8,736 nt of DNA from a virus (taxonomy: Duplodnaviria > Heunggongvirae > Uroviricota > Caudoviricetes), in IMG/VR virus record IMGVR_UViG_2675903654_000007, positions 1-8,736 of that record; one strand, written 5' to 3'. The translations under genes were made by a program, and so were the position numbers. Positions within the stretch are counted from its first letter, which is position 1, and the number at the start of each line of letters is the position of its first letter. The notes under the pieces are model-generated. The model was not told where the DNA came from. It saw only the letters and a program-made list of their open reading frames with translations, and searched no databases. Positions 734 to 8,736 of the stretch are shown one piece after another.

Positions 734-1339
734 TTACACTGGTGTGTTCAGCAAATCGTTAACGGCATCAGATGCCGGGTTACCTGCAGCCAGCGGTGCC
801 GGTGCCCCCTGCATCAGACGATCCAGCGCAGTGTCACTGCGCGCCTGTGCACTCTGTGGTGCAGCTGCCAGAATGCGGCGGGCCGTTTCCACGGTCATAC
901 CGGGGGTTTCGGCCAGCACGCGTGCCTGTTCTTCGCGTCCGTGAGCCTCCACACAGTTGAGGATCCCCATAATGCGACTGTTTTCTGCCGCAACCGCTGC
1001 GGTGATCTGCGCGTTCACGTCCGGCTGTGCAGCGCTGGCGTTCTCGCCCTCCGTCGCTTGCACCACGCCAGTAACGTCAGCCTGCGAAGCAGTGGCTGAA
1101 ACAGTTGTTGATTGAGTCTCTTTGGTCATTCGCCCTCCTGAGAGACGGGATTTACGTGCATCCAGTGCATCACGCATGACGGTGATCGCATCGGTACTGT
1201 TAACAAGTTCATCAGCCAGTCCGGCATCAATGGCCTCCTGACCGCTGTACACTGCAGCCTCGGTATCCAGCACAGCCTGCACGGACAGGCCGGTATATGC
1301 CGACACCTTCTGTGCAAACATCCGGCGGGTTGCATCCAT
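734..1339 (-). CDS. Nu3: Scaffolding protein Nu3-like, in-frame internal start within the C reading frame, shares the C stop codon
   Basis: ATG at 1339 (MDATRRMFAQKVSAYTGLSVQAVLD...) is in frame with the C C-terminal ORF ending at 734; the position corresponds to the recalled lambda Nu3 start. Choice of internal start is uncertain. Confidence 0.6.
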   Translation of the reverse strand: MDATRRMFAQKVSAYTGLSVQAVLDTEAAVYSGQEAIDAGLADELVNSTDAITVMRDALDARKSRLSGGRMTKETQSTTVSATASQADVTGVVQATEGENASAAQPDVNAQITAAVAAENSRIMGILNCVEAHGREEQARVLAETPGMTVETARRILAAAPQSAQARSDTALDRLMQGAPAPLAAGNPASDAVNDLLNTPV

Positions 1340-1966
1340 CCGGGACTGCAGTGTTTCCCGGACATCATCCGGTAGATGGCTGTAGGGGTTGCCATCCACC
1401 TTATGGCTGCCGCTGTAAATCAGCGTGATTTCCACGCCCTGTTTCTCCAGTGCAGCGCCGTAATTACTGTGAGCCATCATGACGCCGATGGAGCCTGTCC
1501 GGGCGGTCTGCGTGACCAGACGCCGGGAGGCGGCACTGGCAAGCAGCTGACCTGCACTGCAGTTCATGTCGTTGGCCAGCGCCCATACCGGCTTTATGTC
1601 ACGCATACGGGCGATGATGTCAGCGCAGTCAAATAAGCCTGTTGCAGACGGGCGATAATGCCGTTGTAACCGGTCATCCCCGAATACGGCTGCAGCGCTC
1701 GCGTCCGACTGACCAGCGTGCCGGACACCGGCAGCACGGCGATGCCGTTCATGACCTGATAACTGCGGGCCTGTCGTGGTCCGTCATCATCAACGGATAA
1801 CGCCAGCGCCGCGGGTGCCTCTCCGGCAGTCAGGCTGTCGCCGGATACCGCATCCGTCAGGCGGCTGATCCCAAGCTGGCCTGCAAGCGCACAAAAGAAA
1901 ACCCGCGCATAGGCGGGTTCAAGCATCAGCGGCTCATTAAAGGCCATACTGGCAATATGCGGGAGA

Positions 1967-1986
<20 letters not shown>
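734..1986 (-). pseudogene. C: Prohead protease / minor capsid protein gpC, interrupted by a frameshift (N-terminal 130-codon ORF 1594..1986; C-terminal ORF 734..1606 in another frame)
   Basis: GTG at 1986 with AGGAGG upstream gives VTAELRNLPHIASMAFNEPLMLEPAYARVFF... (gpC N-terminus), which runs into a TAA at 1594 after ...IIARLQQA. The gpC sequence resumes in a different frame at RDIKPVWALANDMNCSAGQ (ORF 734..1606). Start overlaps the end of B by 20 nt as in lambda. Confidence 0.8.
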
Positions 1987-5589
<3,603 letters not shown>

Positions 5590-5615
<26 letters not shown>

Positions 5616-6135
5616 TCAGCAACCCCGATATCAGTTCATCCAGCGCGGCTGCTTTGTTCATGGCTTTGATGATATCCCGTTTCAGGAAATCAACATGTCG
5701 GTTTTCCAGTTCCGGAAAACGCCGCTGCACCGACAGGGGGATCCCGTCGAGAATACTGGCAATTTCACCTGCGATCCGCGACAGCACGAAAGTACAGAAT
5801 GCGGTTTCCACCACTTCAGCGGAGTCTCTGGCATTTTTCAGCTCCTGTGCGTCGGCCTGCGCACGCGTAAGTCGATGGCGTTCGTACTCAATAGTCCCTG
5901 GCTGGAGATCTGTCTCGCTGGCCTGTCGCAGTTCTTCAACCTCCCGGCGCAGCTTTTCGTTCTCAATTTCAGCATCCCTTTCGGCATACCATTTTATGAC
6001 GGCGGCAGAGTCATAAAGCACCTCATTACCCTTCCCACCGCCTCGCAGAACGGGCATTCCCTGCTCCTGCCAGTTCTGAATGGTACGGATACTCGCGCCG
6101 AAAATGTCAGCCAGCTGCTTTTTGTTGACTTCCAT
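5590..6135 (-). CDS. Nu1: Terminase small subunit gpNu1 (181 aa)
   Basis: MEVNKKQLADIFGASIRTIQNWQEQGMPVLRGGGKGNEVLYDSAAVIKWYAERD... matches the lambda Nu1 winged-HTH N-terminus; located immediately downstream of cosB. Confidence 0.95.
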
Positions 6136-6159
6136 TGTTCATTCCACGGACAAAAACAG

Positions 6160-6300
6160 AGAAAGGAAACGACAGAGGCCAAAAAGCCCGTTTTCAGCAC
6201 CTGTCGTTTCCTTTCTTTTCAGGGGGTGTTTTAAATAAAAACATTAAGTTACGAAGAAGAAGAACGGAAACGCCTTAAACCGGAAAATTTTCATAAATAG
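6160..6300 (-). promoter_or_regulatory. cosB-like terminase-binding region with three gpNu1-binding R elements and an AT-rich bend segment between them
   Basis: Three copies of CGTTTCC/GGAAACG between cosN and the Nu1 start (6165..6171, 6205..6211 inverted, 6266..6272), with an AT-rich tract between (6220..6260), the arrangement of lambda cosB R1/R2/R3 plus IHF site. Confidence 0.75.
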
Positions 6301-6312
6301 CGAAAACCCGCG

Positions 6313-6324
6313 AGGTCGCCGCCC
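6313..6324. other. cosN: 12-nt cohesive-end sequence (reverse complement of GGGCGGCGACCT) at the joined genome ends
   Basis: Window + strand reads cgcgAGGTCGCCGCCCcgtagc; the reverse complement is ...TACGGGGCGGCGACCTCGCGGGTTTTCGC, the canonical lambda cos junction. Confidence 0.88.
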
Positions 6325-6346
6325 CGTAGCCTGCCGGATCGCCGGA

Positions 6347-6353
6347 AAGGACC
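6347..6353. other. Probable cosQ element on the right-end side of cosN
   Basis: AAGGACC about 23 to 29 nt from the cosN nick position; the exact sequence and position of lambda cosQ are recalled, not verified. Confidence 0.45.
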
Positions 6354-6561
6354 CAATAAGTGATAATAATTATCATTTATATAAATACCATCACACATCC
6401 CACGTACACCATAAAACCACGACAAATAATCAATTTTGTCCAAGTCATGCATTAATTGATCTGTGTCAACTTAACGTAAAGACATCTTAAGACAATACAA
6501 ATCAGCAGCACTGAACACGGAAAAACACAATGTCATCAAAAAATAAAGCTTCCCAAACCAG

Positions 6562-6702
6562 ATGATTAATCAAATCCATATTGCCCTTGAACGTAAGGGA
6601 TCGGGTAATTTTTCGGCATGGGTTATTGAAGCCTGCAGGAGAAGGCTGGCAACAGATGCAAAGCACCTGCGCCCGGCCAGCATGAAAAATAACGAGAAAT
6701 GA
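6562..6702 (+). CDS. Short ORF (46 aa) with ribbon-helix-helix-like helix-loop-helix, probably an N-terminally truncated remnant
   Basis: MINQIHIALERKGSGNFSAWVIEACRRRLATDAKHLRPASMKNNEK; the G-S-G-N turn between two helices is RHH-like (Arc/MetJ/CopG). In-frame upstream codons hit TAA at 6544..6546 and the upstream ATG at 6530 is out of frame. Below the ORF-track length cutoff. Confidence 0.3.
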   Translation: MINQIHIALERKGSGNFSAWVIEACRRRLATDAKHLRPASMKNNEK

Positions 6703-6834: not shown

Positions 6835-7161
6835 TCAGGGTGCTGAAGGACTAAAGATAAATGTTTTCTTCACGCCTTTACGCGGCTTGTCCTTCTCAAA
6901 TCGCCATTTTGCCATCGCCTTTACAACCTGCTCATCAAACAGATGGTGCGGCTCTGAACGGATAAACTCAATTCGGGTGACAGTACCATCAGCACCAATA
7001 TCAAACTTCACATCAACCCGTCCCTTTATATAATTTGCCGCGGCATAGGCCGGATATTGTGGTAATGCCTTAACCAACTGTCGAGGCATATCTGTTTTAT
7101 GTTGCGTACAGCCCATAACCAAAGAAGACAACAAAATAATTAACGGAAGATTTCTTTTCAT
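6835..7161 (-). CDS. Small lipoprotein (108 aa) carrying a TonB C-terminal domain, with no TonB N-terminal anchor or proline-rich spacer
   Basis: From ATG 7161: MKRNLPLIILLSSLVMGC (signal peptide with lipobox-like VMGC), then ...LPQYPAYAAANYIKGRVDVKFDIGADGTVTRIEFIRSEPHHLFDEQVVKAMAKWRFEKDKP..., matching the TonB_C signature (E. coli TonB: [55 protein letters not shown]). A second ATG at 7176 lacks an RBS. Confidence 0.75.
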   Translation of the reverse strand: MKRNLPLIILLSSLVMGCTQHKTDMPRQLVKALPQYPAYAAANYIKGRVDVKFDIGADGTVTRIEFIRSEPHHLFDEQVVKAMAKWRFEKDKPRKGVKKTFIFSPSAP

Positions 7162-7181
7162 TCTTATTCCCGGCATAGATA

Positions 7182-7224
7182 AGAATAAGTCTTATTCTAA
7201 CAATGCAGCCCTGTCGGTCATCAA
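7182..7224 (-). promoter_or_regulatory. Candidate sigma70 promoter for the TonB_C lipoprotein gene, with an overlapping perfect palindrome (possible operator)
   Basis: On the - strand: -35 TTGATG (7219..7224), 19-nt spacer, extended -10 TGtTAGAAT (7194..7202). Palindrome AGAATAAG-T-CTTATTCT (7182..7198) overlaps the -10 and start region. Sequence-only prediction. Confidence 0.3.
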
Positions 7225-8084: not shown

Positions 8085-8120
8085 AGAACCACTCGTATAG
8101 CGGGTGGTTCTCTGTTTTAT
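8085..8120 (+). terminator. Rho-independent terminator downstream of the 76-aa ORF
   Basis: AGAACCACTCG (8085..8095) pairs with CGGGTGGTTCT (8101..8111) around loop TATAG, followed by CTGTTTTATT. Confidence 0.55.
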
Positions 8121-8183: not shown

Positions 8184-8621
8184 TCATCGAAGGCATTGCG
8201 TCCTAATGTACTCCTGCAAGTAGTTAACCTGCGCGGTTATCCTGTCGATTCCACTTCGGAGACGGTAATAATTGAGTTCAGCATCTGCTGTAAGTCCTGG
8301 GGTTTCTCCATTGCCCATGCCGCTGGCTCCGGTCGTTGACTTTGCACAGGTGGCGGCGACTTGCAGGCGCTTACGCCCAGCAGAAACATCAGCACGGAGA
8401 CTTTCGATAGTCGCATTAGCATCAGCAAGCTCCTTTGTGTATCTGGCGTCAAGTTCTGCTACATCACGTTGCCGCTTCTGCATATCAGCGATGATGGATG
8501 TGGCTTTATCGCGCTGCTCTTTGTAGGCGATGGCGTTATCACGGTAATGATTAACAGCCCATGAAAGGCAGACGATGAGGCAGATGACCAGAACGTAGAT
8601 AATCGCGGTTACTCTGCTCAT
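8184..8621 (-). CDS. Rz: Spanin inner-membrane subunit Rz (i-spanin)
   Basis: From ATG 8621: [39 protein letters not shown]...[23 protein letters not shown]..., an N-terminal TM helix plus coiled coil, similar to lambda Rz. The ATG overlaps the endolysin stop (ATGA). The track start at 8633 is a GTG. Confidence 0.85.
8237..8422 (-). CDS. Rz1: Spanin outer-membrane lipoprotein subunit Rz1 (o-spanin), embedded in the +1 frame of Rz
   Basis: ATG at 8422 preceded by AAGGAG 7 nt upstream; [20 protein letters not shown] (lipobox VSAC) then proline-rich [22 protein letters not shown], the lambda Rz1 architecture, entirely inside Rz. An alternative ATG lies at 8416. Confidence 0.7.
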
Positions 8622-8736
8622 TGTTGCCCCCACAAACAGACTTCACGCTCAATCTCACGGCGAGTCATCAGCCCTTTCCATTGCTTACCGCCAGCGTATG
8701 TCCAGCGCCGTAGCTGATCACATGCGCCTTTGATAT
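8618..8736 (-). CDS. R: Endolysin, lysozyme type (not the lambda transglycosylase type), C-terminal 38 codons only
   Basis: Reverse-complement translation ends ...[36 protein letters not shown], which I recognise as the C-terminus of phage 21 / E. coli RrrD-type lysozymes; lambda R ends differently. 5' end outside window. Confidence 0.8.

Follow-up and report, generated by a model that had tools for sequence, protein, structure and literature searches.

Few DNA sites in biology are as well characterised as the cos site of phage lambda, and a lambda-type cos beside lambda-like terminase genes is a thoroughly known, ordinary feature. A 238-bp lambda fragment (48446-182) has been used as a sufficient substrate for cos cleavage (PMC4856287). 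cosQ has been described as a highly conserved element of 7 bp, bp 56, 58 and 59 of R3 are important, and positions 56 and 59 of R3 decide between lambda and 21 specificity (PMC4669245). Furthermore, the spacing of cosQ, cosN and cosB matters for accurate nicking (PMC4669245; PMC4856287).

Several systems resemble the site studied here, which lies in an 8,736-nucleotide stretch of DNA (the window, meaning the whole stretch that was analysed). The cos sites of N15-type phages and of phage-inducible chromosomal islands (PICIs) have cosQ and cosN sequences and spacing in common with the window. However, the cosB of N15 consists of a single R3-type site and a distant rR2, and the PICI cos has no R repeats at all and uses RppA, whereas the window harbors the complex tripartite cosB of lambda with three R sites. 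Two defective prophages of the K-12 chromosome, Qin (nohA-ynfO) and DLP12 (nohD), show the same order as the window, namely a DUF3950 gene, a Fur box, cosQ, cosN, cosB, and a Nu1 homologue. In both of them the terminase large subunit and the head genes are deleted, while in the window Nu1, A, and W are intact and B and C have suffered small deletions. Sp4 and Sp14 of O157 Sakai are likewise prophages of the lambda-like cos/Nu1 kind that are defective in head or packaging functions. Packaging of the Sakai prophages has been shown experimentally, whereas that of the window, which excludes integrase, replication, and tail genes, is predicted.

The cos segment and its alignment to lambda

We joined the right and left ends of the lambda genome (NC_001416) and aligned them to the window. 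The region matches lambda base for base from about 48290 to past Nu1, a match that we read as homology and not as chance; chance resemblance was rejected on this base-for-base agreement. Homology to the right end and to the left end of lambda is unbroken through cosN, and the genome ends are therefore joined, as in a prophage, which is what the initial annotation had proposed. That annotation had also placed a lambda-type cos in this region, and a sequence scan found the 12-mer, the CGTTTCC elements, AAGGACC, the palindrome, and Nu1 in the places described. The lambda cos architecture it had assigned was borne out by the alignment to lambda and to isolated phages, with cosB (as R3-I1-R2-R1), cosN, and cosQ. 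The elements, in window coordinates, are these.

6348-6354, minus strand: cosQ GGGTCCT, the packaging-termination signal, identical to lambda, at positions -30 to -24
6313-6324, minus strand: cohesive-end 12-mer GGGCGGCGACCT, the single exact match in the window
6308-6329, minus strand: cosN, the 22-bp nicking site (lambda 48498-17), containing the 12-mer
6275-6307, minus strand: I2, spacer/bend segment (lambda ~18-50), identical to lambda
6257-6276, minus strand: R3 of cosB, the critical TerS binding site, core CGTTTCC at 6266-6272 (lambda 53-59)
6234-6246, plus strand: I1, IHF site core AATAAAAACATTA (lambda 91-79), identical to lambda
6203-6222, plus strand: R2 of cosB, inverted relative to R3 and R1, core CGTTTCC at 6205-6211
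6159-6177, minus strand: R1 of cosB, accessory TerS site, core CGTTTCC at 6165-6171, identical to lambda

About 0.07 matches to the 12-mer with at most one mismatch would be expected by chance. The AAGGACC motif overlaps the reverse complement of cosQ GGGTCCT, which we take to be lambda 48473-48479, and cosQ is unchanged in 154 of the 158 unique lambda-type cos sequences recovered from IMG/VR. The extent of I2 is that given in PMC4856287. R3 is the same as in lambda, bp 56, 58, and 59 included. Elsewhere in the window CGTTTCC has one unrelated match, at 884; the three copies in cosB were identified by a repeat finder as the cores of longer repeats, direct between R1 and R3 and inverted between R1 and R2 and between R2 and R3, which is the lambda pattern. 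The I1 core shows one mismatch to WATCAANNNNTTR. A scan with the IHF consensus was non-specific (82 matches against 62 expected), and the assignment of I1 therefore rests on its identity to lambda and not on the motif. Overall, every sequence feature of a lambda-type cos is present: the 12-mer, a cosQ about 30 bp upstream of the nick, a tripartite cosB with I1, and a matching TerS.

The window agrees with lambda (48446-48502 and 1-190) in the 12-mer, cosQ, I2, the cores and orientations of the R sites, the I1 core, the spacing of the elements, and the place at which Nu1 starts. Over the 238-bp substrate (window 6381-6144) we counted 14 substitutions and one 1-bp deletion, at lambda positions 48447, 48450, 48459, 48470-72, 48486, 48493, 48498, 70, 73, 97, 102, and 134, with base 137 deleted. 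None of them falls in the overhang, cosQ, I2, the R cores, or the I1 core, so that all differences in the minimal cos lie outside the subsite cores. Lambda 1-69, which comprises the overhang, the right half of cosN, I2, and R3, is identical in the window. Furthermore, no indel was found from 48444 to 136 and thus none between cosQ and R2; the cosQ-cosN-cosB spacing is therefore that of lambda. The sole difference in cosN is 48498 T>C (window 6329), at its outer edge, and this change lifts the two-fold symmetry of cosN from 10 of 22 positions in lambda to 12 of 22.

Terminase match and probable function of the site

The terminase that should act on this site is closely related to that of lambda. 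Nu1 is identical to lambda Nu1 at 178 of 181 residues (98%) and matches the PHROG terminase small subunit family at 1.8e-76; its residues 1-74, which include the winged HTH that reads the R sites, show no difference at all from lambda. Similarly, 637 of the 641 residues of gpA (99%) are those of lambda gpA, the differences being R50C, D184E, H384Y, and I459V. These values agree with the earlier description of the terminase as complete. The D184E substitution lies a few residues past the Walker B-like segment VDVAGYDEL. In addition, positions 56 and 59 of R3 are in the lambda state. Given this and the lambda-identical recognition domain of Nu1, site and enzyme match, both having lambda packaging specificity.

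With no variant in the subsite cores and with Nu1 and gpA nearly identical to their lambda counterparts, the site is very probably a working cos of lambda specificity. There is a precedent in lambda recombinants that acquired the cos-region genes of the defective prophage DLP12, nu1 among them, and are viable (PMC3945230). We consider it highly likely that the segment represents the cos of an E. coli prophage of the lambda-like Nu1/A type and should work as the lambda cos does. By analogy with lambda, Nu1 dimers would sit on R3 and R2 across an IHF-bent I1, with R1 as an accessory site, and Nu1 binding would position gpA on cosN (6308-6329). gpA would then nick with a 12-nt stagger and generate the ends GGGCGGCGACCT, the cosN-cosB spacing being provided by I2. 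As in the lambda mechanism, terminase would remain on the cosB end, dock on the portal, and translocate the DNA. A terminase arriving from the lysis-gene side would be expected to nick the bottom strand at cosQ (6348-6354) and so end packaging; at this next cos, cosQ together with cosN would be required for the terminating cut.

The main alternative is that the segment is a relic, homologous to lambda cos but inactivated or severely weakened in a defective prophage by its private changes (48498 T>C, 70 G>T, and the shorter R2-R1 spacer). The same prophage does carry a frameshifted C gene and a 26-aa deletion in the portal protein, and with its head genes in decay it may have come under weaker selection for a working cos. 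To see which of the changes occur in phages, we aligned six isolated phages (2H10, Kati, PhiR47_2, phiSTEC1575-Stx2k, Stx1_9793, and Perceval, whose record begins at the cohesive end). Most of the variants are present in them. Indeed, 48459T, 48486C, 48493G, 73G, 97C, 102C, and 134A each occur in at least one of the six; 102 T>C, which flanks the R2 core, is common to 2H10, PhiR47_2, and Perceval; and the deletion of base 137, which shortens the R2-R1 spacer by 1 bp, is common to all six. Positions 48470-72 and 70-73 are variable among these phages. Two changes, 70 G>T and 48498 T>C, are private to the lineage of the window with respect to the six; apart from them and the stretch 48470-72, almost all variants of the window recur in isolated phages.

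Of these two changes, 70 G>T (window 6255) is rare, being found at 2 of 221 loci, but it sits in the R3-I1 spacer within the variable stretch 70-73. 48498C, for its part, was found in 90 IMG/VR contigs and T in at least 120; in prophage contigs whose terminases are intact, C is almost as frequent as T. Most contigs with the C allele retain full-length terminase ORFs; integrity was judged by ORF length, and since gpA has a GTG start, 581 aa counted from the first internal Met correspond to an intact protein of 641 aa.

The exact 99-bp stretch from cosQ to R3 is common to 12 IMG/VR contigs, and the exact 196-bp cos has one match among the 221 loci, on the closest E. coli chromosome. The exact cos was found in no isolated phage, none matched a 72-bp junction query perfectly over its full length, and 48498C was absent from the isolated phage records that span the junction. 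Because of this, we infer cleavage and packaging from the homology to lambda, the agreement of the subsites and of their spacing, and the intact terminase genes with their lambda-identical DNA-recognition domain. The word intact in the initial annotation is best read as probably intact: 48498 T>C falls within the 22-bp cosN, although it is a common natural allele. On balance, with every subsite core as in lambda and the terminase genes intact, a relic is improbable, and a functional cos of the lambda type is the reading we retain. Sites of this type are widespread: lambda-type cos matches were found in 4,445 of 5,426 complete E. coli genomes (82%), with up to 8 copies per genome. For annotation, the value of the cos lies in fixing the orientation and the packaging specificity of the prophage.

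A Fur-box motif next to cosQ

In the initial annotation the palindrome GATAAT-A-ATTATC (6362-6374) stood among the elements of the cos site, which included a probable cosQ. It is not part of cosQ and is better described as a Fur-box motif, with the following position.

6361-6375 (lambda 48452-48466): Fur-box-type 7-1-7 palindrome TGATAATAATTATCA, adjoining cos and outside cosQ

The 13-mer extends by one base on each side to the 15-mer given above. It agrees with the 7-1-7 inverted repeat TGATAATNATTATCA at 15 of 15 positions, where 0.01 matches would be expected by chance, and with the 19-bp Fur consensus at 15 of 19 positions; a repeat finder lengthened it to 12-1-12 at 92%. It lies 6 bp upstream of cosQ, and its centre is 232 bp upstream of the Nu1 start. 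On the lambda strand its central base is T in the window and C in lambda.

In K-12 Qin, the site at -233 of nohA is an in vivo Fur target and gave a gel shift with 150 nM Fur; it had been picked by Chen et al. with a combined Fur and sigma-70 model (PMC2189734). By alignment, the palindrome of the window is homologous to this nohA site, from which it differs in the central base and the flanks. A strong Fur site is predicted upstream of nohB in DLP12 as well. We therefore describe the palindrome as a predicted Fur-binding motif separate from cosQ, and the reading of it as a packaging signal is corrected to that of a Fur operator motif.

The motif is conserved in lambda itself, and its perfect form was found at the same distance in 101 of the 158 unique lambda-type cos sequences taken from IMG/VR. 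Of 11 unrelated left-flank families, 7 retain it when up to 3 mismatches are allowed. The other four, which comprise 29 unique sequences, are without it, and some of these have a lambda-type R3. Judging from this distribution, the motif appears to be a frequent yet dispensable neighbour of cos.

The closeness to cosQ raises the question of whether the palindrome could belong to the packaging signal by extending cosQ, instead of being a Fur operator. It is located inside the 238-bp cos substrate fragment (PMC4856287), and where it is kept across unrelated left flanks, the boundary of homology often falls just outside it. On the other hand, it is missing from the four families just described, even beside a lambda-type R3, and cosQ has been described as an element of 7 bp (PMC4669245). 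Together with the perfect 7-1-7 Fur box and the gel shift of the homologous nohA site with Fur (PMC2189734), this makes a packaging role very unlikely, and we keep to the Fur-binding motif.

A separate question is whether the Fur box is a functional companion of lambda-type cos sites and not a chance neighbour, which we regard as unlikely. If it were a companion, iron might regulate, in lysogens, a promoter that reads toward Nu1/A or toward the divergent DUF3950 gene, or Fur sitting on the box might affect the arrival of terminase at cosQ. A simple sigma-70 scan of 6340-6400 on both strands gave no promoter-like site. In the literature that we searched, we found no paper that connects terminase of lambdoid phages with a Fur box, and the role of the box in phage biology seems not to be taken up there.

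The DUF3950 gene itself (6531-6702, plus strand) is a homologue of ynfO of K-12. Relative to K-12 it has lost 28 bp, and this deletion brings an early stop into the long frame; what is left is an ORF of 46 aa beginning with an internal ATG (6562). The same short ORF is annotated in the closest genome.

Prophage context, head-gene lesions, and possible packaging in trans

The late genes are on the minus strand, and the window thus reads opposite to the conventional lambda orientation. The genes that define the context are listed here.

8184-8633: Rz-type lysis gene (Pfam Phage_lysis), at the right end of the window
5590-6135, minus strand: Nu1 (TerS), start codon at 6135, 181 aa
3690-5615, minus strand: A (TerL), 641 aa, with a GTG start like that of lambda
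3487-3693, minus strand: W
1967-3490, minus strand: portal gene B

Downstream of B, the minus strand carries C, D, and then the start of E, while the right end of the window also carries the end of the endolysin gene. Among 5,426 complete E. coli genomes, the closest match is a chromosomal prophage of strain Z1323CEC0019, with 99.6% identity in three pieces. From this match we take the window to be a lambdoid prophage or a circular form of one. That the cos belongs to a PICI-like hijacker and not to a phage is next to inconceivable and was rejected on gene content: PICIs do carry lambda-like cosQ and cosN, but their cos is without lambda R repeats and adjoins rppA (PMC9026076), whereas the window has three lambda-identical R sites followed by homologues of Nu1, A, W, B, C, D, and E in lambda order.

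The head-gene lesions reported in the initial annotation are real. With the closest genome as reference, 79 bp of portal gene B are replaced by a single A at 2645. This lesion is in frame and removes 26 aa (residues 283-308 of 533), leaving 507 aa; it was found in no other complete E. coli genome among the matches listed. Gene C (S49 peptidase, 734-2121, minus strand) has one A at 1635 in place of 68 bp of the same genome, and this head protease/scaffold gene is thereby frameshifted. Both lesions have the odd form of a deletion plus one A, which could reflect a common mechanism or an artefact of assembly or editing.

Despite these lesions in portal and protease genes, the cos makes this prophage a candidate for mobilisation with the aid of a helper. 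Packaging of the element in trans, which had been suggested before, is plausible by analogy and has precedent. In O157 Sakai, complementation by co-resident prophages allows defective lambdoid prophages to be packaged (PMC2669165), and viable lambda recombinants have been obtained with nu1, R, or Rz genes of DLP12, their junctions clustering at cos (PMC3945230). When a helper packages a passive prophage, one cos serves to initiate packaging and a second cos to terminate it (PMC4669245). The element must therefore first excise and replicate, or lie in tandem. In other words, packaging in trans would need excision, replication, and a second cos a genome length away, at a spacing of about 38-51 kb.

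In a prophage, with the genome ends joined, the late operon spans the lysis genes, cos, and Nu1, as in lambda. Here, Rz and Nu1 are separated by a gap of about 2 kb that contains an ORF with a TonB_C domain on the late strand, two small ORFs on the opposite strand, and terminator-like hairpins. From lambda biology, Q-modified polymerase is expected to read through this gap into Nu1.

The TonB-domain ORF lies at 6835-7176 on the minus strand, between Rz and cos, and encodes 113 aa. Its C-terminal TonB domain is recognised by Pfam at 2.7e-15, while its PHROG family bears the label 'Rz-like spanin'. Ahead of this ORF lies a perfect 8-1-8 palindrome, AGAATAAG-A-CTTATTCT (7180-7196), and it overlaps a promoter-like -10 element. 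Scanning the entire window with Rfam gave no matches. Just 3' of the Rz stop we observed a strong hairpin with a 12-bp stem (8085-8111) that is terminator-like on the plus strand, and weaker terminator-like sites were seen on the minus strand at 8103-8089 and 8033-8017. The strong hairpin may insulate the accessory genes from flanking transcription.
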